A stretch of DNA of 64,000 nucleotides from Escherichia phage RB49: sequence record NC_005066.1. One strand, 5' to 3'. Positions 9,841 through 61,628 of this stretch are shown here, piece by piece. Under the pieces are notes generated by a model that was given only the letters and a program-made list of their open reading frames with translations, was not told where the DNA came from and ran no database searches. The position numbers and the translations under genes were made by a program. Each line of letters opens with the position of its first letter. The stretch's first letter is position 1.

Positions 9841-9844
9841 GGTG

Positions 9845-9872
9845 TTGACAATCTTGCCTGATAAGGTATAAT
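9845..9872 (+). promoter_or_regulatory. sigma70-type promoter (TTGACA, 16 bp spacer, TATAAT)
   Basis: TTGACA at 9845-9850 and TATAAT at 9867-9872; GGAGG RBS and ATG follow. Confidence 0.6.
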
Positions 9873-9901
9873 GCTCACATCTAAACAACGGAGGATAAAT
9901 T

Positions 9902-34331: not shown

Positions 34332-34607
34332 TCAGGACATTGCCCGTTTGAATGCGTCCATTATAACAGTGTTATTTGGCTTGTCAACACGTTTTTGAAC
34401 TTTATTTTTAAATTTTTTGTTGATGTGGTGTTTACGATAAACAACCTTTTCACGGTTGGCGTAAGCCTCTCGTGCGTCTTTTACCATCAACCATGCCTTA
34501 GCCGCATCTTGTCCGCTGATCCCGCCAATCTTCTTAGCAATATCAACAAAATTAAGACCGTGGTCTTCGCGTAGCATGTAAACCATTAACGCTGTTTTCT
34601 TGTCCAT
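34332..34607 (-). CDS. hypothetical protein (about 91 aa from Met at 34607; ORF open to 34715)
   Basis: internal ATG overlaps stop of upstream small ORF as TGATG. Confidence 0.45.
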   Translation of the reverse strand: MDKKTALMVYMLREDHGLNFVDIAKKIGGISGQDAAKAWLMVKDAREAYANREKVVYRKHHINKKFKNKVQKRVDKPNNTVIMDAFKRAMS

Positions 34608-50442: not shown

Positions 50443-50477
50443 TTTATATCCTCTAGTTGATAACCTATAAACCTATA

Positions 50478-50504
50478 TTTATGAAAAGGGGGCTTAACGC
50501 CCCC
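50478..50504 (-). terminator. intrinsic terminator (minus strand)
   Basis: hairpin GGGGGC-GTTAA-GCCCCC then TTTT on minus strand. Confidence 0.6.
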
Positions 50505-50508
50505 TTTA

Positions 50509-50721
50509 TTATAATGCACCATCGAGCAATTGCTCTAAGGTGTATCCTGAATAGTCTTTTTCAATCAGGGTATATTTTCCTACTCGTTTAATCCAGCCAC
50601 GCATTTCAACGTATTCTGCGTAGTTGATGGTGCGAGTTGTTCCATCTTCTAGCAAAGCAGTACCGATTTCGTTAATGCGGTCATAAGTTACGTCGGTAAT
50701 GATGATTTCGATGTTAGCCAT
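50509..50721 (-). CDS. hypothetical early protein (70 aa)
   Basis: ATG follows promoter cassette and AAGGAG RBS. Confidence 0.6.
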   Translation of the reverse strand: MANIEIIITDVTYDRINEIGTALLEDGTTRTINYAEYVEMRGWIKRVGKYTLIEKDYSGYTLEQLLDGAL

Positions 50722-50757
50722 TTGATACTCCTTAGTAGTTCGTTTCGGTATGGGTGT

Positions 50758-50786
50758 ATTATGATATACACCCTCTGTTATGTCAA
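50758..50786 (-). promoter_or_regulatory. early promoter cassette A (TTGACA-17-CATAAT)
   Basis: minus-strand -35 at 50786-50781, -10 at 50763-50758; -10 sits in loop of GGGTGTAT/ATACACCC hairpin. Confidence 0.65.
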
Positions 50787-50792
50787 CAACTT

Positions 50793-50972
50793 TTAGAACA
50801 TTTTTGAAATTAATTCTGCTTTGATTTCGCAGAGAACATCTAAAGATTTCTCGTCACCTGCTTTTGCGGCTTCTGTTTGCATTTTTGAAATGGCTTCAAT
50901 GTCAGTGCAATTATAAGCCGCTTGAACTTTAGCGATTGCGATGATTGCCGATTCGATGGTTAAGTGTTTCAT
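50793..50972 (-). CDS. hypothetical early protein (59 aa)
   Basis: ATG after cassette B with AGGAGA RBS; below ORF-track cutoff. Confidence 0.45.
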   Translation of the reverse strand: MKHLTIESAIIAIAKVQAAYNCTDIEAISKMQTEAAKAGDEKSLDVLCEIKAELISKMF

Positions 50973-51004
50973 GTTTGATTCTCCTTTCGTTTCGGTATGG
51001 GTGC

Positions 51005-51033
51005 ATTATAGGGGATCGGTGACCCCCTGTCAA
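51005..51033 (-). promoter_or_regulatory. early promoter cassette B (TTGACA-17-TATAAT)
   Basis: consensus hexamers; spacer is GC-rich near-palindrome. Confidence 0.7.
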
Positions 51034-51040
51034 CAACTTT

Positions 51041-51559
51041 TTAGTTATTTTTTAATTGTTCATCTTGCAATAATGCAATCACATGCTGGCGATGTTCTTC
51101 CGATTGAGACACACCGAAAAAGTTTGTTTTGTAGAAATACTCTAATCGGTCTTCTCGTGTGCTCTCTTCCATCATGATCGCGGGTAGTCCGAGATTTCGG
51201 AAACGTCGCTTTTCTGCTGGCGTAAAATCACTGTAATACAACATAGAATCATCATTACAAGCAATGCTAAACTCATCCTTCATAAAGGAGAATATTGCGT
51301 TTAAACGCTGTTTACCGTCCACGATTTCGATCTCATAGCGAGAGCCATCATCAATCTTAGCCATTGCGATAGCACCAACCGGAAAATCATTAATCAGGTT
51401 TTCGATAAACATACGTTTGTTTTCGGTGTCCCATACTAAAGGACGCTGATAATCTGGGTTCATGTTGATATAGCCATCTTCTAACCATGCTTCATAAACA
51501 GAGATAACAAAGTTTTTAGTATTGGTATAGTAACGGCGTTTAGGCGTTAAACGGTTCAT
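51041..51559 (-). CDS. DUF262-like (ParB/GmrSD N-terminal domain-like) protein
   Basis: motifs NPDYQRPLVW and IVDGKQRL; start placed at Met 51559 with AGGAGA RBS (ORF track extends to 51595). Confidence 0.6.
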   Translation of the reverse strand: MNRLTPKRRYYTNTKNFVISVYEAWLEDGYINMNPDYQRPLVWDTENKRMFIENLINDFPVGAIAMAKIDDGSRYEIEIVDGKQRLNAIFSFMKDEFSIACNDDSMLYYSDFTPAEKRRFRNLGLPAIMMEESTREDRLEYFYKTNFFGVSQSEEHRQHVIALLQDEQLKNN

Positions 51560-51560
51560 G

Positions 51561-51890
51561 TTATAGTCTCCTGAATGGATCATCACGTAAATCAATATCT
51601 TTTAAGAACTCATCCCATGAATGGCGGATATTGTTCTTAATTCTCCAGATAAGAGCAGGGATTGAACGCTCTCCCATCTGGAAGTATGGATCATATGATC
51701 CGTATGCCCAATATGCTACTACAATTCCACAATCAGCGCAATAGTATTCTATTTCACTTGCTGGCGACCAAAGTCCATCAATATGATCGGTGATCTTGCT
51801 TTCGATGTTATGGCTATGACAATCAGGGCAACGGATGCAATGACCTTGTTTATCGTAATTTGACGTTAGCGAATACTTAAACAATCTCAT
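51561..51890 (-). CDS. zinc-ribbon protein
   Basis: CIRCPDCHSH ... YYCADCG cysteine pairs; 109 aa. Confidence 0.55.
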   Translation of the reverse strand: MRLFKYSLTSNYDKQGHCIRCPDCHSHNIESKITDHIDGLWSPASEIEYYCADCGIVVAYWAYGSYDPYFQMGERSIPALIWRIKNNIRHSWDEFLKDIDLRDDPFRRL

Positions 51891-52606
51891 TATAGATCCT
51901 TATTTGCTTCAAATACTGCCTTTGCGAATCCTCGCGGGGTAAGTGACCTGATAGTCTTTGTTTTCGTTCCTTTCCCGCCTAGCTTAGAATGCTGTTTACT
52001 GTACCCTTTATTAATCTGCAAAGGTTTCTTTTCTGGCATTATAAAGCCTTGTCCGGTCCATAAGCAAGTCTTTTTCGGGTACATATCACGGGCGGCAATA
52101 TACTCAGGAAAAGTAGGATGTTTATCATCTTCCGGCAAATAACCGCCATATTCCCACGGATGGAACATATAATCAGGCTTACGCCACATGCTAGAGATAA
52201 CGCTTACAGGATTCTCTATCATGTAGGGAACTCCTATCCATTCACCCAAATAAGCGGTTATTTTAGCTGCCCTTACATCATGAACTTGAATCAATGGTCC
52301 TTGTTCTAGTTTCTTTCGTTCAAAGTGCGCAGCGCCACTAACAGCTAAATTGGTGCACGGTGGGAATGCAAAGATAATATCCGGTTTCCCCCATTCAAGG
52401 TCCATTGCTCTTTCCAGCCAGTTCAAATCAATCCAGGTGTTTACATAGGTAATGTTTGGATGTTCAAATCTGGTATTATATTTTTTGTATGTACCGTGGT
52501 CGCCATCGTCAGCATTAAAGCAGATCACCTTATGACCCGCTTTAGCCCATTCTAACCCCATTATCCCCGACCCGTCAAAGTTGCAGAATATTAATTTTTG
52601 TTTCAT
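51890..52606 (-). CDS. C5-pyrimidine methyltransferase-like protein lacking a target-recognition domain
   Basis: motif I-like FDGSGIMGLEWAKAG, PC motif FAFPPCTNLAVSG, ENV-like YMIENPVSV; only 238 aa. Confidence 0.45.
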   Translation of the reverse strand: MKQKLIFCNFDGSGIMGLEWAKAGHKVICFNADDGDHGTYKKYNTRFEHPNITYVNTWIDLNWLERAMDLEWGKPDIIFAFPPCTNLAVSGAAHFERKKLEQGPLIQVHDVRAAKITAYLGEWIGVPYMIENPVSVISSMWRKPDYMFHPWEYGGYLPEDDKHPTFPEYIAARDMYPKKTCLWTGQGFIMPEKKPLQINKGYSKQHSKLGGKGTKTKTIRSLTPRGFAKAVFEANKDL

Positions 52607-52848
52607 ATACGCCCCTTTAATCCAACACAGATTTTAGAAGGTTCTTTGCCGTGCCACATTAAGTAAAGTCCGTTAATGCGGCCTTGTTTTGTATATGATT
52701 CTTTTCTGATCTTCTTATAGTGTCGTGTTTCCTCTACCGATTGTTTAGAATACCAATCATAAAGGAAGAGGAACAAAGGCCAACCATTAGCAACCTTAAT
52801 GCAGTTATTCAAAAATTCCTTATTTCGTTTAATTAATTTTCTTTTCAC
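52603..52848 (-). CDS. hypothetical protein (81 aa)
   Basis: start overlaps upstream stop; operonic. Confidence 0.5.
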   Translation of the reverse strand: MKRKLIKRNKEFLNNCIKVANGWPLFLFLYDWYSKQSVEETRHYKKIRKESYTKQGRINGLYLMWHGKEPSKICVGLKGRI

Positions 52849-53096
52849 GCTGCCCCCATTGGTTTGATAGTAACAGAATCTAAAAGACCTTTGTTAGCCA
52901 GTTCGCGGCAAGTTTTCAGATCCGCAACTTCCCAGCCAGCCGCAATCAGGTTATCAATGAGGCTGTTAGCAACTTCTTCGCTCATGAAAGAGCACTGTTT
53001 GCCGATGGTGTAGCGTACACGCTGTAATTTCAGTTTACGGAAGCCTTTAACGTTCAGGTCTTTAGCGATTTTCTTTGCGGTTTCGATGTTAGCCAT
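52845..53096 (-). CDS. hypothetical early protein (83 aa), first gene of five-gene operon
   Basis: ATG GCT AAC ATC start directly after cassette C. Confidence 0.55.
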   Translation of the reverse strand: MANIETAKKIAKDLNVKGFRKLKLQRVRYTIGKQCSFMSEEVANSLIDNLIAAGWEVADLKTCRELANKGLLDSVTIKPMGAA

Positions 53097-53136
53097 TGTT
53101 TGATTCTCCTAAGTGGTATCTCGTCTTGATGGTTGT

Positions 53137-53165
53137 ATTGTAGGGGAGTTATCCTCCCCTGTCAA
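53137..53165 (-). promoter_or_regulatory. early promoter cassette C (TTGACA-17-TACAAT)
   Basis: spacer is hairpin GGGGAG-loop-CTCCCC. Confidence 0.6.
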
Positions 53166-53179
53166 CACTTTTTATAAAA

Positions 53180-53347
53180 TTATTTGTTAATTTCTGGTGC
53201 GTTGCTAGGATAGTAACCTTCTTTAACTCCGAGGTATTTCGCAACCATCCCTACAATCTTCTGTGCTACTACAATGTCAAATTTCAGATAATCTTCGCCG
53301 TGGGTTTCAACGATATATGCTTCACATGCTGCTTTAGTCTCGAACAT
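53180..53347 (-). CDS. small hypothetical protein (55 aa), duplicate copy 1
   Basis: about 85 percent nt identity to 57506-57673; ORF track entry 53284-53490 reads on through the promoter. Confidence 0.5.
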   Translation of the reverse strand: MFETKAACEAYIVETHGEDYLKFDIVVAQKIVGMVAKYLGVKEGYYPSNAPEINK

Positions 53348-53380
53348 TTTGATTCTCCTATTTCGTTTCGGTATGTGTGT

Positions 53381-53409
53381 ATTATAGGGGATCTCCCGAT
53401 CCCCGTCAA
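53381..53409 (-). promoter_or_regulatory. early promoter cassette D (TTGACG-17-TATAAT)
   Basis: spacer hairpin GGGGATC-loop-GATCCCC. Confidence 0.6.
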
Positions 53410-53422
53410 CAACTTTTTTAGA

Positions 53423-53899
53423 TTATTTGCACCACACTGTAATTTTCTTATCATGTTGGTAGTGAATCCATCGAATATCATCTTTATCAATCATGACAGT
53501 AACATACCCATTTACTAGTGATTTGTCAAAACGGTTATGTAACAGTGCAATATATTGAAAGAATGGTTCTTTTGTATTTGAATATATTCCCTTACCATCA
53601 AACGTCATGACATTTTTGTGAACTTTAAATTCATTACGAAGAACAGCCGTCATTGTCCCGTCTTCATTAGTTTTGAGTTTTAATTCGGATTCTTTGTAAA
53701 AATATGCGTCACGGGCTTTACTTTCTTCCCCGTCTTGTACTCTTACTTCACTAGCATAATCACACTGATAGGTCTTATCTACATTTTCGATCTTTTCTTG
53801 TGTCATATCAAAAAGCGGTGCGACCTTTTTCTTGGCCGCGTGTGCTACGTTGGTCATGGACAGTGCTGCAACAACCGCAATAGCAATAATCTTCTTCAT
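53423..53899 (-). CDS. secreted/periplasmic protein with N-terminal signal peptide
   Basis: MKKIIAIAVVAALSMTNVAHA signal peptide; 158 aa. Confidence 0.6.
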   Translation of the reverse strand: MKKIIAIAVVAALSMTNVAHAAKKKVAPLFDMTQEKIENVDKTYQCDYASEVRVQDGEESKARDAYFYKESELKLKTNEDGTMTAVLRNEFKVHKNVMTFDGKGIYSNTKEPFFQYIALLHNRFDKSLVNGYVTVMIDKDDIRWIHYQHDKKITVWCK

Positions 53900-53929
53900 A
53901 GTATTCTCCTTTTGTTTTGTGTTGGGAGT

Positions 53930-53958
53930 ATCTTAGCGACACTCCCGTTATTTTTCAA
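53930..53958 (-). promoter_or_regulatory. early promoter cassette E (TTGAAA-17-TAAGAT)
   Basis: weaker hexamers; hairpin GGGAGT/ACTCCC overlaps -10. Confidence 0.45.
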
Positions 53959-53964
53959 ATCTTT

Positions 53965-54246
53965 TTATTCGTGATTAGTTTCGATGTTGTGCATTTTGCA
54001 CCAGTTCAACCAATCGCCCAGATCTTGATAGTTGATGCTTTTATCTGCTGCCATCGTTTTTGTCTTGATACCCATATGTGCGTTATGAGTAAGCATTTTT
54101 ACAGTGAACTCAATTTTATCACCTTTAGCTTTAACATCAACCAGTTTGGTCCACTGGCTACCAGCGCCGCGAATGTTCATACCAACGATGTTTCCGATGT
54201 ATGCTTCTTTGTTTTTCAGGATTTCGGTTGCTTTGATGAATTTCAT
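53965..54246 (-). CDS. hypothetical early protein (93 aa)
   Basis: ATG after cassette F. Confidence 0.55.
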   Translation of the reverse strand: MKFIKATEILKNKEAYIGNIVGMNIRGAGSQWTKLVDVKAKGDKIEFTVKMLTHNAHMGIKTKTMAADKSINYQDLGDWLNWCKMHNIETNHE

Positions 54247-54279
54247 TTTTGATTCTCCAGTTCGTTTCGGTATGGGTGT

Positions 54280-54308
54280 ATTATGCTATGTTCTTACTTT
54301 GGTGTCAA
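54280..54308 (-). promoter_or_regulatory. early promoter cassette F (TTGACA-17-CATAAT)
   Basis: consensus -35, conserved leader ACACCCATACCGAAACGA. Confidence 0.65.
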
Positions 54309-54315
54309 CAACTTT

Positions 54316-54585
54316 TTAGATATTTTCAGAAATAAATTTTAAAACTTGACGTAAATGTTTCTCATCTTTGATAGTCGCCGGAAGTTCTTCTTTTACTTCC
54401 TGTGCAAGATAGATATTTCCGTTCCAAGTGAAAGATCCGTCTTCGTTTACGCGATAGCTGAACATCCACTCGCAATCATTTTCGATTTCATATACACACA
54501 GAAGGGTGTAATCGTTAAAGCTAGTGATTTCAAGGTCGAAGCCGTGACGTTTTGCAAAGTTGGTAGTGGTTTTAGTCAGTGCCAT
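54316..54585 (-). CDS. hypothetical early protein (89 aa)
   Basis: ATG after cassette G. Confidence 0.55.
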   Translation of the reverse strand: MALTKTTTNFAKRHGFDLEITSFNDYTLLCVYEIENDCEWMFSYRVNEDGSFTWNGNIYLAQEVKEELPATIKDEKHLRQVLKFISENI

Positions 54586-54625
54586 TGTTTGATTCTCCTA
54601 AGTGGTATCTCGTCTTGATGGGTGT

Positions 54626-54654
54626 ATTATGCTATAGTCGTGATCTGGTGTCAA
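54626..54654 (-). promoter_or_regulatory. early promoter cassette G (TTGACA-17-CATAAT)
   Basis: consensus -35; follows terminator hairpin. Confidence 0.65.
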
Positions 54655-54684
54655 CAACTTTTTTAAATTTTTGGAAATAAAAAA

Positions 54685-54702
54685 GCCGACACTAAGGTCG
54701 GC
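54685..54702 (-). terminator. intrinsic terminator (minus strand)
   Basis: GCCGAC-loop-GTCGGC then T-run on minus strand. Confidence 0.6.
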
Positions 54703-54707
54703 ACATT

Positions 54708-55019
54708 TTAAAAATTCTTGCTATATATGCAAGCCTCATAATCTAGAGGATGACCGCCAATCCTACCAGGCTTAATATTCCAACCGCATCGATATTTTCT
54801 GACCATGCTAACCGTTTCGGTTCTTAGAGCATTTCTTTGCAAATCATACCCCCTAAATTCTTGTCTATAAGGACAGTCCGCTTTGCAAGTTGGCGGTTCT
54901 ACGTCATTTAGCGGGTCGGAAGCAGTTGGCTTTATTATCAATTCTTTGTTTGCAATAATCATAAGCACATCCCATTGAAGACAATTTAACATCTTCGCAA
55001 TAAGTGTTGAATCCGTCAA
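54708..55019 (-). CDS. Cys-rich hypothetical protein (overlaps next ORF; possible frameshifted gene)
   Basis: 103 aa ORF overlapping 54904-55095 in another frame. Confidence 0.35.
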   Translation of the reverse strand: MTDSTLIAKMLNCLQWDVLMIIANKELIIKPTASDPLNDVEPPTCKADCPYRQEFRGYDLQRNALRTETVSMVRKYRCGWNIKPGRIGGHPLDYEACIYSKNF

Positions 55020-55095
55020 ATACGATCACTTCGTATTTGACTCCATCAGCGATAGCTTTTACTTTATACCATCCATGCTTGTATAAAATCTTCAT
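54904..55095 (-). CDS. Cys-rich hypothetical protein (63 aa)
   Basis: ATG after cassette H with GAGGA RBS. Confidence 0.45.
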   Translation of the reverse strand: MKILYKHGWYKVKAIADGVKYEVIVFDGFNTYCEDVKLSSMGCAYDYCKQRIDNKANCFRPAK

Positions 55096-55127
55096 CTTTA
55101 TTTCCTCAATCTCGTTTCGATGGGTGT

Positions 55128-55157
55128 ATTATGCTATAGGCTAGACCAGGTTGTCAA
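55128..55157 (-). promoter_or_regulatory. early promoter cassette H (TTGACA-18-CATAAT)
   Basis: consensus -35. Confidence 0.6.
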
Positions 55158-55188
55158 CAACTTTTTTAATTTTTTGGGAAATAAAAAA

Positions 55189-55206
55189 GCCGACGCTAAG
55201 GTCGGC
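55189..55206 (-). terminator. intrinsic terminator (minus strand)
   Basis: GCCGAC-loop-GTCGGC then T-run; near-identical to hairpin at 54685. Confidence 0.6.
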
Positions 55207-55214
55207 TAATAAAA

Positions 55215-55523
55215 TCATTTGGACAAATAATCATTCTGTGCAATCCGGTCGGCGTATGCTGGTGTTATGTCAATCGCCAGCACTTTAACGCGTGCTTTCT
55301 TGCGACCTGGGTTTTCTCGTAACCAGTGCTCATGACCGTGAACATTTTTATACTTTGATGCTTCTTCAAATGTACGGATCGGACCTGGGTAATCAGCGTA
55401 AAGGATCTCTAGGTCTTCGGTGATGTAAAAATATACATCGTAATTACTGTTCTCTAGTTTAAGCAGAGAGTTGCGAAATTGTGGTAAATTCTCGCGGGTA
55501 AATTCAACTACAAGATTTTTCAT
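55215..55523 (-). CDS. hypothetical protein, HxHW...VLAVDV-motif family, paralog 1
   Basis: VYFYITEDL ... HGHEHWLREN ... VLAIDI. Confidence 0.6.
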   Translation of the reverse strand: MKNLVVEFTRENLPQFRNSLLKLENSNYDVYFYITEDLEILYADYPGPIRTFEEASKYKNVHGHEHWLRENPGRKKARVKVLAIDITPAYADRIAQNDYLSK

Positions 55524-55552
55524 AGTGATATCCTCATTCAGATAGATTAAAA

Positions 55553-55567
55553 GGGGCTTAACGCCCC
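55553..55567 (-). terminator. hairpin terminator (minus strand)
   Basis: GGGGC-loop-GCCCC then U-rich on minus strand. Confidence 0.45.
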
Positions 55568-55574
55568 CCGTATA

Positions 55575-55862
55575 TTAAAACAGTCCTTCCTGTACACCGT
55601 AGTAGAGTTCGTCACTGATAATTTCATTAATGCGACGGTGTGCATATTCCTGATTTGCGAAGTTATCAGCAAGTTCTACTTTAGTTTCGCCGTCATGAGT
55701 CCATTTAGTGATAACTTTACCATCTGCAAATTTGAAGTTGAACTCTTTAGCTACTGCATCGCGTACCAGACGTGCGAACTTGTTGTTACGGATGGCATTA
55801 TCGGTTTCGTGTGCAGCGTGAGCGAATTTGTTAACTTTCAGAGTGATAGTAATGTATGCCAT
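55575..55862 (-). CDS. hypothetical early protein (95 aa), AKEFN family copy 1
   Basis: RLVRDAVAKEFNFK parallels REVRKALAKEFNTK of 58891-59220. Confidence 0.55.
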   Translation of the reverse strand: MAYITITLKVNKFAHAAHETDNAIRNNKFARLVRDAVAKEFNFKFADGKVITKWTHDGETKVELADNFANQEYAHRRINEIISDELYYGVQEGLF

Positions 55863-55908
55863 AATTTGATTCTCCTAGTTAGAAAGTGTATCTCGTTTCG
55901 ATGGGGAT

Positions 55909-55937
55909 ATTATGCTATATCCCCGATCCGGTGTCAA
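55909..55937 (-). promoter_or_regulatory. early promoter cassette J (TTGACA-17-CATAAT)
   Basis: -10 in loop of GGGGATAT/ATATCCCC hairpin. Confidence 0.65.
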
Positions 55938-55943
55938 CACTTT

Positions 55944-56237
55944 TTATAAAATAATTTTTTGATATTTTTCTATGATGTTTGTGTAGGTCACGTCAACCGC
56001 TAGCACCGTTGCTTCGAATCCACCGTTTAGCCAATGGCTATGATCATGATCGTGAAAGAAACCTAGACCAGTACGAAGACCTTCTTTATATTCTGCGCGT
56101 ACATTCAGTTTGTCGTCGATAAACAGATAAAACCATGAATTTTTACTAGGATTGATGATACAACCTTTCAGATTAGGAAGAATATCACGACTAAGAATAA
56201 ACTTATCACCTACTTTGAACATAATATTAGTCCTCAC
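55944..56237 (-). CDS. hypothetical protein, HxHW family, paralog 2 (probable true start at internal ATG near 56222)
   Basis: WFYLFIDDKL ... HDHDHSHWLNG ... VLAVDV. Confidence 0.55.
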   Translation of the reverse strand: MRTNIMFKVGDKFILSRDILPNLKGCIINPSKNSWFYLFIDDKLNVRAEYKEGLRTGLGFFHDHDHSHWLNGGFEATVLAVDVTYTNIIEKYQKIIL

Positions 56238-56547
56238 TTATAAGGTCAAACCAATTGTTTTTCGCATAATGCTTAATGCGTGCTTGATCTGCTTCCGCTG
56301 GTGATAGATTCCATGCAACCACTACAACTTCTGACGCATCGTCATCCGTTTCTGATACCCAATGATTGTGATTCATACAGTTATTTGCTATCGAGTGAGC
56401 AAATGATTTCATCACTGGAGACGTATAATCATAGTAACGGATTTTCAGATTTTCATCAACGTACAAGTAGATCGTATACGGCTTATATTCAGTAACCAGT
56501 AACAGACAGTTACGCAATTCTGGGAAAATCTTTTTAGTTAATTTCAT
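56227..56547 (-). CDS. hypothetical protein, HxHW family, paralog 3
   Basis: start placed at MKLTKK with GAGGA RBS; TIYLYVDENL ... NHNHWVSE ... VVVVAW; ORF track extends to 56628. Confidence 0.5.
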   Translation of the reverse strand: MKLTKKIFPELRNCLLLVTEYKPYTIYLYVDENLKIRYYDYTSPVMKSFAHSIANNCMNHNHWVSETDDDASEVVVVAWNLSPAEADQARIKHYAKNNWFDLISED

Positions 56548-56548
56548 T

Positions 56549-56767
56549 TTATAATCCTCGGTCTCGGCTATAGTACACGGTACGCCATACAATTTCATGT
56601 TTCGTGTCGCTCCAGCACACGATCTCATTTACTCTTAAATCTTTGTTATCAACAAAAGATGAACATTGTGACGCTTCTTTCATCATTTTATCTGCTGTTT
56701 TCTCATCAAATACAGCACAGATTTCTTTATACACTCGATAATCTTTGAATTGACTCTGAATACCCAT
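56549..56767 (-). CDS. hypothetical protein, KMMxxASxC family copy 1
   Basis: start placed at MGIQSQFKDY; paralog of 56727-56990. Confidence 0.45.
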   Translation of the reverse strand: MGIQSQFKDYRVYKEICAVFDEKTADKMMKEASQCSSFVDNKDLRVNEIVCWSDTKHEIVWRTVYYSRDRGL

Positions 56768-56990
56768 AATTAACACCATTCCAACCAATTGTTTTTGAGA
56801 AAACGTTTATCCACTGTTGAGTGTAGCATGTTTCTTTCCATGATACAATACGAGTGGAATAATGGTTTTTGTTTCCAGAAAAGGACGGGCATTTTGATGC
56901 ATCTTCCATCATCTTTTCGGCGAACTCTGGTGCGTATACTCGCAGGATCTGTTGATATGCTTTGTATTCTTTAAATTTGCTCATAATCAT
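56727..56990 (-). CDS. hypothetical protein, KMMxxASxC family copy 2
   Basis: MSKFKEYKAY...AEKMMEDASKCPSF; 3' end overlaps next gene by about 40 nt. Confidence 0.5.
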   Translation of the reverse strand: MIMSKFKEYKAYQQILRVYAPEFAEKMMEDASKCPSFSGNKNHYSTRIVSWKETCYTQQWINVFSKTIGWNGVNYGYSESIQRLSSV

Positions 56991-57249
56991 TCACTACCTT
57001 ATCAGCTTCTTTTGTTGTTTTTACATCAACTGCGATAACTCGTAAAGGTTCGTCATGGTTCCACCAGTGGTCATGAATATCAGCTTGTGATTTATCACCA
57101 AAGGAATCACGAATATCATTTTTACATTTATAGCTAATGTGACCTTCATAGTCAACATAAAGGTAATTATCGAAAATCGGCGTTTTTAAGATCATACCGA
57201 AAAATCTTTCTTTGTGTGTCTTATCCAGCGTTGCAGTAATTCGCATCAT
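56971..57249 (-). CDS. hypothetical protein, HxHW family, paralog 4
   Basis: NYLYVDYEGH ... HDHWWNHDE ... VIAVDV. Confidence 0.55.
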   Translation of the reverse strand: MMRITATLDKTHKERFFGMILKTPIFDNYLYVDYEGHISYKCKNDIRDSFGDKSQADIHDHWWNHDEPLRVIAVDVKTTKEADKVVNDYEQI

Positions 57250-57261
57250 AATATATTCCTC

Positions 57262-57441
57262 TTAGAAAGGGATGGTCATTTCTTGAGCTTGTACATTCTC
57301 GTTAGGATTAAACTTCATCCAGCCGATATTGTCTACCAGCATATGCACATTTTTATCATATCCTACGTGAGTAGTCAACACTAAATGTGCTTTACCTTCA
57401 ATGATGAGTTCCATGTACTTCTGAACTTCGATAGCTTTCAT
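57262..57441 (-). CDS. hypothetical early protein (59 aa)
   Basis: ATG after cassette K; below ORF-track cutoff. Confidence 0.45.
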   Translation of the reverse strand: MKAIEVQKYMELIIEGKAHLVLTTHVGYDKNVHMLVDNIGWMKFNPNENVQAQEMTIPF

Positions 57442-57473
57442 TTTGATTCTCCGTTTGTTGTCTTGATGGGAGT

Positions 57474-57502
57474 ATCTTACTACTCCATTTAATCATTGTC
57501 AA
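57474..57502 (-). promoter_or_regulatory. early promoter cassette K (TTGACA-17-TAAGAT)
   Basis: consensus -35; hairpin GGAGTA/TACTCC overlaps -10. Confidence 0.5.
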
Positions 57503-57505
57503 CTA

Positions 57506-57673
57506 TTATTTGTTAATTTCTGGTGCGTTGCTCGGATAGTAACCTTCTTTAACACCTAGATATTTTGCAACCATTCCGGTGATCTTCTGTGCTACTACGA
57601 TATCGAATTTCAGGTAGTCTTCACCGTGGTTTGCTACAATGTATGCTTCGCATTCTGCTTTAGTCTGGAACAT
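57506..57673 (-). CDS. small hypothetical protein (55 aa), duplicate copy 2
   Basis: near-identical to 53180-53347 protein; ORF track entry extends through promoter. Confidence 0.5.
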   Translation of the reverse strand: MFQTKAECEAYIVANHGEDYLKFDIVVAQKITGMVAKYLGVKEGYYPSNAPEINK

Positions 57674-57707
57674 TTTTGATTCTCCTATATCTCGTTGGTA
57701 TGTGTGC

Positions 57708-57736
57708 ATTATAGGGGATCACCGATCCCCTGTCAA
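57708..57736 (-). promoter_or_regulatory. early promoter cassette L (TTGACA-17-TATAAT)
   Basis: spacer is perfect hairpin GGGGATC-GGT-GATCCCC. Confidence 0.7.
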
Positions 57737-57741
57737 CAACT

Positions 57742-58035
57742 TTATAATGCTTTATATGCGTATTTCATAAATTTGTCTGCCACTTCATTGGCATGTTCAG
57801 ATTCTACGCCTGATTCGAGAACAATAGCTAGGTCGGTTTCGTCATTCCCGCCGTACCAATGATTTGATGTTCGATTTTTTTCAATTGGAAATTGGTCACT
57901 TTTATCTGTGCGACAAAATACATCTAAATGCTCGTCGATGTAAAAGATCCAATCTTCATAAAGAATAACGGTATTAGCAAGATTTTTATTGCCTTCAACG
58001 AAAGGTTCCGCGACAAATAGCTTAGTTTGTTCCAT
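57742..58035 (-). CDS. hypothetical protein, HxHW family, paralog 5
   Basis: start placed at MEQTKLF with GAGGA RBS; WIFYIDEHL ... SNHWYGGNDE; ORF track extends to 58092. Confidence 0.5.
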   Translation of the reverse strand: MEQTKLFVAEPFVEGNKNLANTVILYEDWIFYIDEHLDVFCRTDKSDQFPIEKNRTSNHWYGGNDETDLAIVLESGVESEHANEVADKFMKYAYKAL

Positions 58036-58051
58036 AGTAATTTCCTCAAAA

Positions 58052-58243
58052 TTATACAGTTTCGTAAACTTCCCAATGTTCAGCGCCAACACGCTTAACG
58101 AAAAGGTTTTCTTTGATGTTATTCATAAACGTCTGGATGGATTTAATGCGGTTTGAAGGTTTCCATTCTTCGTTGGCATTGCGTCGATACATCATAACAT
58201 TACCAGTTCGCTTATATTCAGCAACCATTTTAAGACCACACAT
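58052..58243 (-). CDS. hypothetical protein (63 aa)
   Basis: ATG with GAGGA RBS. Confidence 0.4.
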   Translation of the reverse strand: MCGLKMVAEYKRTGNVMMYRRNANEEWKPSNRIKSIQTFMNNIKENLFVKRVGAEHWEVYETV

Positions 58244-58300
58244 AATATTATCCTCAATTTGTGGGAGAGTATTACCCCTCCCAATGATTGTTATGTTATA

Positions 58301-58621
58301 TCACACAAAATGGCGTGTCAATGCTTCTTTTGCGGTTCCGCTAAGACTTTCAATCTCGCCTGGCATAACATCAACCGCCAGAACTTCTACAACATCCTCG
58401 GACCCTAACCAGTGAGTATGGCCTTTGTAGAACTTGATAACCAGACCACCTTCCTCGTCCCATTTAACGCTATCGCTAGCCCACCACACATCACCGTCGA
58501 TAAAGTTGATGTAAAGCACACTACGCCACATTGAATTAATTACTTTCAATACTGCGCCTTTCATCTCTTCCACGGTATGGTCTTCCATTTTGAAGACCTC
58601 ACCTACCTGAACTTTTGCCAT
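58301..58621 (-). CDS. hypothetical protein, HxHW family, paralog 6
   Basis: VLYINFIDGD ... KGHTHWLGSED ... VLAVDV. Confidence 0.6.
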   Translation of the reverse strand: MAKVQVGEVFKMEDHTVEEMKGAVLKVINSMWRSVLYINFIDGDVWWASDSVKWDEEGGLVIKFYKGHTHWLGSEDVVEVLAVDVMPGEIESLSGTAKEALTRHFV

Positions 58622-58638
58622 TTAGTCACCTCTCTTTA

Positions 58639-58818
58639 TTACATAACAATCACGCCAGCCGTTGAAAGTTGATGTTTCAACTGAGCATTTTCTGCTACCG
58701 TCAAATCAATGATTTCTTGTGACGCTGCAATCATATAGCCATTGGTGATATTGTTTTGCATCAGTTCAATGGTTTCTTCGTTGTAGCGGATTTTAGCGAT
58801 GATTTCGTTGAAGTTCAT
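58639..58818 (-). CDS. hypothetical early protein (59 aa)
   Basis: start placed at MNFNEIIAK after cassette M; ORF track entry 58639-58884 reads through promoter. Confidence 0.45.
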   Translation of the reverse strand: MNFNEIIAKIRYNEETIELMQNNITNGYMIAASQEIIDLTVAENAQLKHQLSTAGVIVM

Positions 58819-58852
58819 AATTGATTCTCCTAGTTCGTTTCGGTATGTGTGT

Positions 58853-58881
58853 AGTATAGGGGATCGGTGATCCCCTGTCAA
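58853..58881 (-). promoter_or_regulatory. early promoter cassette M (TTGACA-17-TATACT)
   Basis: spacer hairpin GGGGATC-ACC-GATCCCC. Confidence 0.6.
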
Positions 58882-58890
58882 CAACTTTTT

Positions 58891-59220
58891 TTAAAGTTTT
58901 TCCATGATAACGGTCATAATTACATCTTCTGCGCGAGCTGTCAGATTATCAGCGTCAGCATGTGGGCGGTTGGTTGTTACAGAGATAACACCGTTGCGCA
59001 CTGGTTTGATATTGATATCAAGATGATCCGCGAAACGTTCGTGATCCGCGAAACGTTCGCCAGTTACAGAATGAATTTTGGTGTTAAATTCTTTTGCCAG
59101 TGCCTTGCGAACTTCACGAATCAGGATAGCGTTTTTCAGTTGGTTCTCCGCGCTCATGGTCTTCTGGGTGTTCATGGTTCCGTCGAAGTCAATCATTGGC
59201 AGCGTTACGATGTATTTCAT
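58891..59220 (-). CDS. hypothetical early protein (109 aa), AKEFN family copy 2, with internal ERFADH tandem duplication
   Basis: paralog of 55575-55862; contains 18 bp tandem repeat. Confidence 0.55.
   Translation of the reverse strand: MKYIVTLPMIDFDGTMNTQKTMSAENQLKNAILIREVRKALAKEFNTKIHSVTGERFADHERFADHLDINIKPVRNGVISVTTNRPHADADNLTARAEDVIMTVIMEKL
59025..59060. repeat. 2 x 18 bp tandem direct repeat (GATCCGCGAAACGTTCGT / ...GC)
   Basis: 17 of 18 identical; in-frame within CDS 58891-59220. Confidence 0.75.
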
Positions 59221-59265
59221 TTTTGATTCTCCGTTTAAGAAAGTGTGTTTCGTTTTGATGTGTGT

Positions 59266-59294
59266 AGTATAGGGGATACGTGATCCCCTGTCAA
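59266..59294 (-). promoter_or_regulatory. early promoter cassette N (TTGACA-17-TATACT)
   Basis: spacer hairpin GGGGAT-loop-ATCCCC. Confidence 0.6.
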
Positions 59295-59307
59295 CAACTT
59301 TTTTGAA

Positions 59308-59652
59308 TTATTTTTTCATGAGCTTAATGGCTTCTTCCATAGCCAGCACATTTCGATAGTTAGGGTATCGTGTTAGATCGTCATACATTCGCTTAAGGGT
59401 GGAAACTTCCTCAAACTCTGGGTTTTCTAGATACAGTTGAACAAATTGTTTCTCTACCATCTCTGCTTTTAGCTTGTCTGCTTGTTCCTGTTCATATGAT
59501 TTAGTTGGACCCAACACCAACAAAATGATAAAGGTGATCAACGGGCTAATGATCAACGATAGGAGAACATAACCGATAACGCTACGGTTTAAACGGCTTG
59601 CGTACATGCCTACTAGGAAAACAAAAAGGATATAGATAAACAGAAAGAACAT
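59308..59652 (-). CDS. membrane protein (two N-terminal TM helices plus cytoplasmic tail)
   Basis: hydrophobic stretches at residues about 1-20 and 27-47. Confidence 0.55.
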   Translation of the reverse strand: MFFLFIYILFVFLVGMYASRLNRSVIGYVLLSLIISPLITFIILLVLGPTKSYEQEQADKLKAEMVEKQFVQLYLENPEFEEVSTLKRMYDDLTRYPNYRNVLAMEEAIKLMKK

Positions 59653-59659
59653 ATAATGG

Positions 59660-60133
59660 TTACTCCTTATTTTCTCGCTCGTACTTTTCGAAATAAAATT
59701 CTACTGGCTGGTCATGAATTGACAGCAAGCCAAAGCGTTTAGCCGCTCGCAATCCCATATTGCGCTGAATGTACTTCTGGAAGTTCTCGCGTATACACTT
59801 ACGCCAGTATTCTAAGCCCATACAGCTTTTATAAAGATTGCATTGCACACACGCCGGATTCATGTTATCAAGTATATCATGTTCCGGTTTATGCATTCCT
59901 ACAACCTTATACTTCCACGATCCATCATCATTACGGGCAATTCGTCCATTTTCATCATAGACTACCTTTGAGCGTCGCAATACTGGTTTGATGTGGTCTG
60001 CGTGCCAGCGATCCCCTAGTTCCTCGCCACAATAGGCACAACGTCCACCATATTTCATTTTCAGGATCTGGCGTTGCTCTTTCTTTGACAATTTTTTAGG
60101 TTTAGGGGCTTTCGCCCCTTCATTATCACACAT
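59660..60133 (-). CDS. HNH endonuclease
   Basis: CAYCG ... HADHIKP ... N ... CVQCN HNH motif; start overlaps ligase stop. Confidence 0.7.
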   Translation of the reverse strand: MCDNEGAKAPKPKKLSKKEQRQILKMKYGGRCAYCGEELGDRWHADHIKPVLRRSKVVYDENGRIARNDDGSWKYKVVGMHKPEHDILDNMNPACVQCNLYKSCMGLEYWRKCIRENFQKYIQRNMGLRAAKRFGLLSIHDQPVEFYFEKYERENKE

Positions 60134-61628
60134 CGAATACCTCTTTTACTGTATTTGCAGTGGTCTTGTCGTAGCGAATACGTTTGATGATTGGGAGAAA
60201 TAAAGAGAACTCCGGTTCATCTTCTTTACGTGATTTGCTGCGGATATACCCGTTGCATGTCATCTCAATGACTTTTCCAATCAGGTTATGACGGTCAGTC
60301 CATAACATTTCTCGGTCGAGTTCATTTCGACGATCGAACGGAATTACACGTTCAGTACCATCATCACCTTTTTCGGTTGTAGTGTCGGTTAATCCCGATC
60401 CGGTGTTAGTCATCATTCGTCCGCACGCACTACGGACAGTAAAACCGCCTACCTTATTGGGGTCTTTACTATGCGGATATACATCAACAATTTCCGCGTC
60501 GAAGTCAATCACTTCTTTAAATTTAACCTGATCTTTACTACGGCGATCTTCAAATACACCATGTAAATTTTTAAGGATAATACCTTCTAAGCCCATGTTT
60601 ACATAGCGATGATATACTTCGCGAGCTTCATCTATATTGTTAACTACAGTGTTTTCGATTATCTGAACACGAGGATCGTTAAGTTCTTCAACAATCTGTT
60701 TTAGTTCTTCGAATCGATCTTTATATTGCTTCGTTGCTTTCTCATTTCCGTAATACACATCACGGTCGATAACATCCCAGACAGTATAAACAATACATTG
60801 GGCTTCTTCTTTTGGAATAGTTCCTTTAAGTGATTTGTTGAGGATACCATTTCCAGTCTGACGGTCTGCAACAACGGATTCTTTCACTGCTTCCGCTACT
60901 GGCGTTAATGGCATTTCCTCTTCTTCAAATATCCATGACAGAGTACCATCATAAACGCTCTCAACGAAGTTCTGCGCTGGTGTTTGCGAAAGGGTAGGCA
61001 TATATACCAATTCGCCATCTAGAACAATTCCACGGCCTCGTAGACGCTCTAAAACCGCAAACAAATCATCAAGCCCTTGATAGGTATTACCTGAGCGGGT
61101 ATAGATTGCTAATGTTTCCCCGTCAATATCAGCCATACCACGAGCGCCATCGCTTTTAAGTTGTGCATACGCCGGATATTTGATATTGGCAATGGTCTTA
61201 TCAGAACATGACGATGCAAGGTGGCACGGCTGCTGGGGGATCAGTTTCTTCCATACCTTGTTTGCAGTGGTAGCGGAACAACCGCATTCCAGGTCACGAT
61301 TCAGGACCATCATTGCAACTTTAGCATCATCTTCTGACAAGCAAGTCAGAGTATCGGTAACTAGCTGTAATGCTGCATTACCAGTTACTTGACGTGTTGC
61401 AAGTTTATTTTTAAAGACCTGCAATGCACCGGATAAAGACAATACAGACGAATAGCGAGACGGTTTATCGTATTTCTTTACGCCAAACGTAACCTGTTTG
61501 CAATATGCCAGATAAAAGCATTCTTTCAGCGTTTCATTGCTCGCGGATTCTTTCAGAATCTTTTCTTTCAGCGATGTTTTGTCTGTTGCTGCAAGCTGAT
61601 TAATGATATTAAGAATTGACATTTTCAC
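60126..61628 (-). CDS. 30: ATP-dependent DNA ligase gp30
   Basis: 500 aa; adenylation motif I LKSDGAR (KxDG); position between gp31 region and alt as in T4. Confidence 0.9.
   Translation of the reverse strand: MKMSILNIINQLAATDKTSLKEKILKESASNETLKECFYLAYCKQVTFGVKKYDKPSRYSSVLSLSGALQVFKNKLATRQVTGNAALQLVTDTLTCLSEDDAKVAMMVLNRDLECGCSATTANKVWKKLIPQQPCHLASSCSDKTIANIKYPAYAQLKSDGARGMADIDGETLAIYTRSGNTYQGLDDLFAVLERLRGRGIVLDGELVYMPTLSQTPAQNFVESVYDGTLSWIFEEEEMPLTPVAEAVKESVVADRQTGNGILNKSLKGTIPKEEAQCIVYTVWDVIDRDVYYGNEKATKQYKDRFEELKQIVEELNDPRVQIIENTVVNNIDEAREVYHRYVNMGLEGIILKNLHGVFEDRRSKDQVKFKEVIDFDAEIVDVYPHSKDPNKVGGFTVRSACGRMMTNTGSGLTDTTTEKGDDGTERVIPFDRRNELDREMLWTDRHNLIGKVIEMTCNGYIRSKSRKEDEPEFSLFLPIIKRIRYDKTTANTVKEVFDV

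Follow-up and report, generated by a model that had tools for sequence, protein, structure and literature searches.

The 64,000-nucleotide stretch of Escherichia phage RB49 analysed here (NC_005066.1; hereafter the window) carries, within 8.6 kb of its minus strand, 13 copies of one short promoter module, each placed in front of a small gene. This locus raises the question of what the module is and what it does for genes that are otherwise unrelated to each other. The 13 modules are very probably promoter-early stem-loops (PeSLs), which are self-contained expression units in a hyperplastic region of an RB49-like Krischvirus. A preliminary description of the sequence had compared them with mobile promoter-early/stem-loop cassettes; the observation is real, this first interpretation is right, and the element has been described before (Arbiol et al. 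2010, PMC2839356), the modules being published PeSLs at the same locus and in the same genus. The additions to the PeSL papers are breakpoints from 10 genomes, an exclusivity statistic for hairpins and terminators and a match to the RegB consensus.

The copies lie at exactly the 13 coordinates given for their -35 boxes in the preliminary description. Each coordinate is the low plus-strand coordinate of a minus-strand TTGACA-type hexamer (13/13) and serves here as the name of the cassette (Table 1), and the intervals align in register on this hexamer. The module is 78–94 bp long and consists of an A-tract, TTGACA, a spacer of 17–18 bp, the -10 hexamer, a C/A-rich leader, the Shine–Dalgarno (SD) box GGAGAATCAAA and ATG. 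The MAFFT alignment of the 13 copies (A1) contains 17 invariant and 15 nearly invariant columns, with the consensus AAAAAAGTTGTTGACA, 17-nt spacer, TATAAT, ACACCCAT..CGAAACGA.., GGAGAATCAAA, a few nt and ATG. When the profile derived from A1 was run over the 64 kb, the strong matches were exactly the 13 array copies (E = 2e-20 to 4.5e-7). There was no comparable copy outside the array; the next-best match (E = 5e-4) is located at 9841–9899 on the plus strand, and a further weak match, at 34352–34399, is partial. Pattern searches gave 16 matches to AAAGTTGTTGACA with up to two mismatches (3.2 expected from shuffled sequence; 11 inside the array), 13 matches to GGAGAATCAAA with at most one mismatch (2.0 expected; 11 inside the array) and 5 matches to the leader 18-mer with up to three mismatches (0.03 expected).

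The spacer is 17 bp long in 12 copies and 18 bp long in c55152, within the range of 17 ± 1 bp proposed earlier, and the -10 variants are those listed before (CATAAT in five copies, TATAAT in three, TATACT and TAAGAT in two each and TACAAT in one). The two hexamers match the sigma70 consensus at 11 or more of 12 positions in 11 copies, at 10 in c57497 and at 9 in c53953, and an A-rich tract is found 5′ of the -35 in all copies. A generic sigma70 scan between 47 and 64 kb returned 13 sites with at least 11 matching hexamer positions, 11 of them cassettes. All 13 copies have GGAG or GAGG 6–9 nt 5′ of the ATG. The leader, described as conserved, is related in all copies, but the form quoted is exact in two and lies within one mismatch in five; the remaining copies carry variants, e.g., ATCAAGACGAGAT or ATCGAAACGAGAT.

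The stop codon reported near the -35 box is located 3–14 nt ahead of it in 11 of the 13 copies, and the other two come after canonical terminators. The picture of tightly packed independent units fits about two thirds of the cassettes, whereas four head multi-gene operons. In total, the cassettes head ~26 open reading frames (ORFs): eight or nine cassettes lead a single gene, and the others head operons of 2, 4, 5 and 6 ORFs. The lead ORFs encode 55–158 amino acids (aa), and the Pfam scan of them returned no family among those scanned.

The plus-strand element at 9841–9899 lies among virion genes and consists of TTGACA, 17 bp, TATAAT, GGAGGATAAAT and ATG. A canonical terminator is located upstream of it, and a conserved counterpart exists at 151473 of the RB49-species genome. 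The element resembles an early-type promoter placed within a late-gene block.

PeSLs were described in RB49 and phi1, with ~51–52 per genome concentrated in hyperplastic regions (PMC2839356). They comprise an AT-rich tract, -35 and -10 hexamers of the sigma70 consensus and a GGGG...CCCC stem-loop, followed by the SD and the start codon; the stem-loop can occupy five positions (spacer, over the -35, over the -10, upstream AT-rich tract, downstream of the -10), most commonly the spacer or the -10 (PMC2839356). Since the published definition runs to the SD and start codon, the leader and SD are already part of it. In the array, the stem-loop is located in the spacer in six copies, over the -10 in four and, as a canonical terminator, in the upstream AT-rich tract in two, with none in c54303. 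The promoter hexamers, the context of stop codon, SD and small ORF, the locus and the association with insertions/deletions (indels) are also those of PeSLs.

The region is 92–98% identical to Krischvirus genomes (RB49-like T4-type coliphages Sf20, TB34, MIZ6 and an RB49-species assembly), none of the matching records being identical. According to the Sf20 annotation (“similar to phage RB49 gp185 ... gp211”), the array ORFs correspond to RB49 gp185–gp211, and the array constitutes the hyperplastic region between an Alt-like gene and the genes for an HNH endonuclease and DNA ligase. An 82-nt cassette query matched 57 of 50,697 phage records, all of them RB49-like (phi1, JSE, GEC-3S and the RB49-species genome included), at ~7 places per genome, and on these matches the cassette sequence is confined to the RB49-like genus. 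In the GenBank records of GEC-3S and Makalu, these sites are already marked as promoters, with -35, -10 and terminator features. The 14-mer AAAAGTTGTTGACA was found at no fewer than 120 unrelated loci in IMG/VR, the pattern being too unspecific, and the profile search detected no cassette among the matches listed.

By gene order, c57731 occupies the position of PeSL206/205 and c59289 that of PeSL211/210. In the 2010 experiments, this region was HPR3, with “eight PeSLs in an ~5-kb area”; PeSL206/205 reached ~13,000 Miller units and was thus very strong as a promoter, the stem-loop of PeSL211/210 cut lacZ read-through about as much as rrnB T1, and most cloned PeSL promoters acquired -35 or -10 mutations, which implied toxic strength (PMC2839356). 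Inverse polymerase chain reaction (PCR) revealed mini-circles with ORFs 191–194 or 192–193, joined between the -10 and the SD/ATG, and ORF192 and ORF210 mini-circles were also reported (PMC2839356). A literature search for Krischvirus transcription-start data returned nothing relevant.

The proposed mechanism combines several roles in one module. The A-tract and the near-consensus sigma70 -35/-10 hexamers would form an early promoter at which the unmodified host RNA polymerase fires immediately after infection; this role has been demonstrated experimentally for the c57731 orthologue (PMC2839356) and is presumed for the other copies. The GC-rich hairpin, abutting the -10 from the spacer or spanning it, would act as an insulator that terminates or attenuates upstream read-through, as demonstrated for the c59289 orthologue (PMC2839356). 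The unstructured C/A-rich leader and the fixed SD box would provide efficient translation initiation, and the box may double as a RegB/S1 cleavage site that inactivates early mRNAs later. As a recombination linker, the same ~80–90 bp before unrelated genes would allow phage general recombination to cross from one copy to another, chiefly within the A-tract/-35 or leader/SD blocks, and so to delete, insert or swap modules of “cassette + gene”.

Internal hairpins and terminators

Folding of the 42 nt from the -35 gave -7.9 to -16.2 kcal/mol in 10 of the 13 copies and 0 to -2 kcal/mol in the other three. Hairpins of -9 kcal/mol or lower occur in 9/13 copies, compared to 10% of 3000 random 42-nt windows. 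The GC-rich inverted repeat attributed earlier to most copies is stable in these ten, but none is present in c54303, c54649 and c55152. Both c54649 and c55152 follow a canonical terminator directly. The same relation was examined genome-wide in the RB49-species genome OZ035808, using profile-anchored -35 boxes and a terminator search of the 75 nt upstream. Forty profile matches were obtained, 39 on one strand; the hairpin is present in 26 of 30 cassettes without an upstream terminator and missing in 9 of 10 cassettes with one (Fisher p = 2.3e-5).

At two sites, alleles with different stem sequences could be compared. The gp198 site (c55932) has the alleles GGGGATAT/ATATCCCC and GGGTGTAT/ATACACCC, the latter in five relatives, which amounts to two double-compensatory pairs, and the gp209 site (c58876) has GGGGATC/GATCCCC here and GGGGAG/CTCCCC in relatives. 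Paired cells make up 93% and 91% at the two sites, against 22–69% with the partner columns slid, and the covariation scores were exceeded by 25/500 and 1/500 shuffles.

The preliminary description had suggested “an operator or RNA structure”. RNA structure, i.e., a terminator or attenuator of upstream transcription, is supported by these results, and an operator is disfavoured because the hairpin varies in position and sequence and is absent exactly at the sites preceded by a canonical terminator. The evidence favours the hairpin as a functional equivalent of a terminator or insulator for incoming transcription. The alternative is that the inverted repeat is a DNA operator or recognition site, bound by a repressor or targeted by a nuclease or recombinase at the GGGG...CCCC palindrome. 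In its favour, the RNA polymerase footprint contains the stems, which form almost perfect palindromes and in many cases include one or two GATC; an HNH endonuclease gene adjoins the array, and one of the array genes encodes a GmrSD_N protein. A flip of the loop between ACC and GGT is compatible with hairpin or cruciform events at the DNA level, and targeting by a nuclease or recombinase was speculated on by Arbiol et al. (PMC2839356). We consider this explanation unlikely: there are at least four unrelated stem sequences in two registers relative to the -35/-10, so that pairing is conserved and sequence is not, an operator gives no reason for the exclusivity with upstream terminators, and the indel junctions lie in the A-tract or leader and not in the stem.

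Several points weigh against insulation by the internal hairpins. The consensus terminator scan called 0/10 of them, and none of the ten combines a GC-rich hairpin with at least five U in 8 nt, as in a canonical intrinsic terminator. The four hairpins spanning the -10 are followed by AUACC or AUCAA with no U-tract, and the spacer hairpins only by the -10 hexamer (UAUAAU/UAUACU). In all 10 phages with cassette c54303 (Cognac lacks it), this copy has neither hairpin nor upstream terminator. The promoter and terminator activities assumed here extend to the array what plasmid tests showed for two orthologous elements. Terminator-like action of the internal hairpins is deduced from one published reporter assay (PMC2839356) and the exclusivity statistic. 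Comparisons meant to separate an RNA-level from a DNA-level role of the hairpin gave no clear signal: G.T and A.C appositions with at least two Watson–Crick pairs on both sides numbered 4–5 vs. 0 (p ~ 0.06–0.13), and sense and antisense folds under symmetric selection did not differ in stability (p = 0.58), a comparison confounded by the G/U-rich antisense leader.

Two features of the palindromes deserve a separate mention. At orthologous sites in different phages, the loop of GGGGATC-NNN-GATCCCC changes between ACC and GGT, which is equivalent to the reverse complement of the whole element and suggests either that the hairpin mediates inversion or template switching or that paralogous cassettes act as donors in conversion. 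In addition, the stems bring one or two GATC (Dam) sites into the promoter spacer, a feature undiscussed in the PeSL paper (PMC2839356).

Structural differences between relatives

The cassettes had been expected to supply homology for shuffling genes in and out, and comparison with 10 relatives did reveal presence/absence differences bounded by cassettes. The copy number in the array ranges from 5 (Cognac) to 13 (this phage, the highest) among 11 phages. Breakpoints were derived from chained BLAST high-scoring segment pairs; ~12 distinct structural differences were found, and 6 of ~10 two-ended indels have both breakpoints on cassettes. The cassettes occupy ~14% of the region and head 13 of ~29 gene boundaries. 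The expectation for both ends on cassettes is ~2% under a sequence null and ~19% under a gene-boundary null, and the observed 6/10 is well above both in a back-of-envelope binomial calculation. On the 55188–55207 side, the terminator and cassette form a ~100-bp direct repeat with 54581–54702, and this repeat bounds an indel seen in three relatives.

Relatives without the gp186-like gene have a chimeric cassette, with a promoter half of the c51028 type and the leader/SD of c50781, as the PeSL model predicts. The four possible combinations of loop (ACC/GGT) and -10 (TATAATG/TATACTA) all exist among the phages at the gp205 site, which indicates that exchange or conversion has recurred within ~15 bp. 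Stretches of identity between copies fall equally in the A-tract/-35 and leader/SD blocks, the two zones with junctions.

The case for exchange between cassettes is weakened by several findings. In two indels, a single breakpoint coincides with a cassette edge (59315 or 58891) and the other is at 59673. Three or four differences lie off cassettes (52605/52832; a 261-bp insertion at 58619; a replacement at 58054–58241), and several of the indel events have common breakpoints and are not independent. Identical tracts between copies have a median of 14 bp and a maximum of 41 bp, reaching 20 bp or more in 8/78 pairs, and such short tracts are marginal for homologous recombination.

It is quite improbable that the cassettes are integron- or transposon-like elements moved by a dedicated site-specific recombinase, with the hairpin as its target in the manner of attC. 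The circular “cassette + ORF” molecules obtained by inverse PCR speak for it, and the integron analogy was drawn by the authors themselves (PMC2839356). Against this, no integrase or transposase was reported in RB49/phi1 (PMC2839356), and neither these nor a tyrosine-recombinase integrase of the integron/attC type were detected among the array proteins scanned. The crossover is not fixed: the varied junctions (18–24 bp of leader, the A-tract edge, a 237-bp overlap, a ~100-bp repeat) fit general homologous recombination. There are no terminal inverted repeats and no target-site duplications.

If small genes had been duplicated in tandem along with their promoters, the array would be a paralogous gene family without an independent cassette. 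The 55-aa ORFs behind c53404 and c57731 (g53347/g57673) are indeed 91% identical and have similar cassettes, and the array contains paralogous small-gene families. This is the only paralogous pair out of 78 possible pairs of lead genes in the BLASTP comparison; the other 12 lead genes lack similarity (E < 1e-3), and similarity between copies ends at the ATG. As the lead genes are otherwise unrelated, the repeat is not a by-product of gene duplication. Moreover, the paralogous families g55523/g56544/g56222/g57249/g58621 and g56767/g56990 are precisely those without cassettes. Both are situated inside multi-gene operons; the duplication of genes is thus a process apart from the spread of cassettes here. 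The first family (five members, 27–34% identity) appears to have H-x-HW and VLAVDV-like motifs, and the second is a pair with 40% identity.

Duplication, a very remote prospect, was rejected along with the still less probable convergence of near-consensus promoters and optimal ribosome-binding sites evolved gene by gene, with no common origin or recombination role, in view of the unrelated cargo, the genus restriction and the identical tracts between copies. The best-conserved columns are functional (-35, -10, GGAG), as convergence would have it, but the copies also have non-functional positions in common (upstream AAAAAGTTG, the discriminator ACACCC/ACACAC, AATCAAA after GGAG) and leader tracts of 18–41 identical bases, the module is found only in the 57 RB49-like records, and deletion junctions carry chimeric cassettes.

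In phage G2494 (~3990–4071 of its sequence), the c51028 orthologue is intact and the start codon of its cargo has changed from ATG to ATA, leaving the cassette before a decaying ORF.

The leader and RegB

The strong-site consensus of T4 RegB/S1 is GG*AGRAYARAA (PMC3014915). The SD box GGAGAATCAAA, found at 9 cassettes, matches this consensus at 10 of 11 positions, with C instead of A at position 8. The relaxed pattern GGAGRAYNRAA was found at 0 of ~55 other crude gene starts in the window. The predicted leaders, from the A ~7 nt after the -10 to codon 6, are unstructured, with a minimum free energy of -1.5 to -2.6 kcal/mol and z of 0 to +1, i.e., the leader fold is no better than that of shuffled sequences. 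An Rfam search of the leader found no family and returned only a chance snoRNA match (E = 0.94).

A RegB query 100% identical to T4 ORF 61.9 detected a homologue in G37-3 and GoldenSnicker, with 41–42% identity over the full T4 RegB length. In the RB49-species genome, the RegB gene (128567–128974) follows a cassette in second place, and its SD is GGAU; the GGAU SD of RB49 regB is also given in a review (PMC3014915). The PeSL paper mentions neither RegB nor a leader or untranslated region (PMC2839356).

The cassette can tentatively be regarded as an “on-then-off” timing module, in which GGAGAATCAAA, single-stranded in an unstructured leader, would be a built-in candidate RegB/S1 site; on the sequence evidence, we hold this to be a serious possibility with the balance slightly against it. 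Similar to T4 RegB/S1 sites, the box agrees with the consensus at 10/11 positions, the initiation region is unstructured, the mRNAs are presumably early and the genus encodes a RegB homologue. The departure at position 8 and the divergence of RB49 RegB (~42% identity) set the two apart and count against the proposal, and conservation of the box could reflect the common descent of the cassettes. If the proposal is true, a gene gaining a cassette would inherit immediate-early transcription, insulation and programmed mRNA inactivation minutes later, and RegB itself would be made from behind one such cassette, an idea not considered in the PeSL papers.

Neighbouring genes and known systems

The features of the array and its boundaries are listed in Table 1. 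The orthologous site of the hairpin closing the array is annotated in G37-3 as an ARNOLD terminator. Upstream of the Alt-like gene, at ~50460–50475, CATAAATA is similar to TATAAATA, the T4 late-promoter consensus. A late-promoter-like sequence ahead of this gene fits an early-to-late transcription switch at the terminal terminator of the array.

Among the products of the five-ORF operon behind c53160 are a protein with a GmrSD_N/DUF262 domain (E = 5e-20) and a small one whose zinc-ribbon match is weak and below the cutoff. A third product, of 238 aa, is annotated as a DNA methyltransferase in relatives but had no Pfam match here. The operon could be an anti-restriction or DNA-modification module. 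Phage MIZ4 lacks this entire block.

The 158-aa ORF behind c53953 has a hydrophobic, signal-peptide-like N-terminus (MKKIIAIAVVAALSMTNVAHA). Its relatives among the 50,697 phage records are restricted to five RB49-like phages, with at most 58% identity. The first ~46 codons are conserved with the MIZ6/G2494 allele and the remainder (53434–53762) is replaced; the gene is therefore a mosaic. Identification with “ORFan192” of the 2010 paper was rejected, as matches reach at most 58% identity in the five phages and the slot alone is shared.

At the other end of the array, a predicted membrane protein of 114 aa (gp211-like, 59308–59673) has no cassette of its own, and its presence varies among relatives. 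A recurrent breakpoint at 59673 adjoins the stop codon of the HNH endonuclease gene, and a link to endonuclease activity is possible.

Table 1. Cassettes, hairpins, terminators, indels and genes of the array and its flanks; cassettes are named after the -35 coordinate
Feature	Position	Strand	Remarks
Second ADP-ribosyltransferase, 274 aa	47489-48313	-	Pfam; adjoins Alt-like gene, downstream of array
Alt-like ADP-ribosyltransferase, 683 aa	48391-50442	-	Pfam; conserved downstream boundary
Terminator-like hairpin closing array	50484-50504	-	GGGGGCGTTAAGCCCCC + TTTT; ahead of Alt-like gene
c50781 lead gene	50509-50721		70-aa ORF
c50781	50716-50800	-	TTGACA, 17 bp, CATAAT; between gp186 and gp185 orthologues
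c50781 hairpin			8 bp, spans -10; GGGTGTAT/ATACACCC; -12.1 kcal/mol
Indel	50762/50986		Both ends cassettes; leader overlap 22-24 bp (18-bp exact repeat here); absent in 6 relatives
Indel	50762/53965		Both ends cassettes
c51028 lead gene	50793-50972		59-aa ORF; missing in 6/10 relatives
c51028	50967-51047	-	TTGACA, 17 bp, TATAAT; spacer hairpin GGGGGTC-ACC-GATCCCC, one G.T pair
Palindrome hairpins	51011-51027, 53387-53403, 57714-57730, 58859-58875, 59272-59288	-	Compared with orthologous sites in 10 relatives
c53160 cargo	51041-52606	-	5-ORF operon including GmrSD_N/DUF262 protein and ORF annotated methyltransferase in relatives
c53160	53092-53179	-	TTGACA, 17 bp, TACAAT; spacer hairpin GGGGAG-gataa-CTCCCC; long leader variant
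Indel	53184/53965		Both ends cassettes
c53404	53343-53423	-	TTGACG, 17 bp, TATAAT; spacer hairpin GGGGATC-GGGA-GATCCCC
c53404 lead gene			55-aa ORF (gp191-like); paralogue of ORF behind c57731
Indel	53416/57505		Both ends cassettes; Cognac, 4.1-kb deletion; 237-bp overlap spanning cassette and paralogous gene
Indel	53427/53965		Both ends cassettes
c53953 lead gene	53423-53899	-	158-aa ORF; variable “192 slot”
c53953	53895-53972	-	Weakest copy; TTGAAA, 17 bp, TAAGAT; hairpin over -10, -16.2 kcal/mol
c54303	54242-54322	-	TTGACA, 17 bp, CATAAT; leads 93-aa ORF
c54649	54581-54668	-	TTGACA, 17 bp, CATAAT; no internal hairpin
Indel	54667-54702/55109-55182		Both ends cassettes; terminator + cassette repeat
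Canonical intrinsic terminator	54685-54702	-	GCCGACCTTAGTGTCGGC + T6; directly upstream of hairpin-less c54649
c55152	55091-55171	-	TTGACA, 18 bp, CATAAT; SD GAGGAAATAAAG; no internal hairpin
Canonical intrinsic terminator	55188-55207	-	AGCCGACCTTAGCGTCGGCT + T6; directly upstream of hairpin-less c55152
Five-member paralogous ORF family	55215-55523, 55944-56222, 56227-56544, 56971-57249, 58301-58621	-	Without cassettes
c55932	55858-55951	-	TTGACA, 17 bp, CATAAT; hairpin over -10, GGGGATAT/ATATCCCC
Second paralogous pair	56549-56767, 56727-56990	-	Without cassettes
c57497	57437-57516	-	TTGACA, 17 bp, TAAGAT; 6-bp hairpin over -10, -7.9 kcal/mol; 6-ORF operon
c57731	57669-57750	-	Perfect TTGACA, 17 bp, TATAAT; spacer hairpin GGGGATC-GGT-GATCCCC
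c58876	58814-58895	-	TTGACA, 17 bp, TATACT; spacer hairpin GGGGATC-ACC-GATCCCC; 4-ORF operon
c59289	59216-59308	-	TTGACA, 17 bp, TATACT; spacer hairpin GGGGATC-ACGTA-TCCCC
HNH endonuclease	59660-60133	-	Pfam; conserved upstream boundary
ATP-dependent DNA ligase	60126-61628	-	Pfam; conserved upstream boundary

For the old idea of “modular evolution by conserved linkers” in phages, few concrete mechanisms have experimental support, and PeSLs are among them. As a portable unit of promoter, terminator and ribosome-binding site, a PeSL expresses an accessory gene safely and supplies homology for its gain, loss or swap. The array illustrates this cleanly, and none of the other phages in the comparison of 11 has as many copies. 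It is no new kind of element, and the residual value of the analysis consists of quantitative support from ~10–57 genomes and a testable RegB hypothesis. With ~57 related genomes now public, compared to two in 2010, quantitative tests of breakpoint enrichment, of conversion between cassettes and of hairpin/terminator complementarity have become feasible.

Compared with the PeSLs of RB49 and phi1, the array has the same genus, hyperplastic region (ORFs 185–211), architecture, extent of ~100 bp and ORFan indels. Nothing categorical distinguishes them; the array has 13 copies and another ORF in the “192 slot”. The PeSL concept was widened to other T4-like groups by Comeau et al. in 2014 (PMC4122927). 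The PeSL-like elements of T-even phages (T4 IP loci; the PST/T4 and nt-1/KVP40 pairs) are likewise composites of an early promoter and a stem-loop beside variable genes and mediate swaps. However, they are described as analogues and not homologues, with T4-type early promoters and weaker AT-rich stems that lack polyG/polyC arms.

Integron gene cassettes are also small single-ORF modules with a hairpin repeat at their boundaries and circular intermediates. They are promoterless and carry attC, whereas each module of the array has its own promoter, variable crossovers and no known integrase. Lambdoid morons and the “linker” sequences of Botstein and Campbell provide a further parallel, as autonomous promoter–gene–terminator units placed between genes in the first case and conserved linkers that steer exchanges to acceptable sites in the second. 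The regulatory flanks of morons show no conservation from one moron to another and are not regarded as drivers of mobility, whereas the flank of a PeSL is itself the repeated homology.

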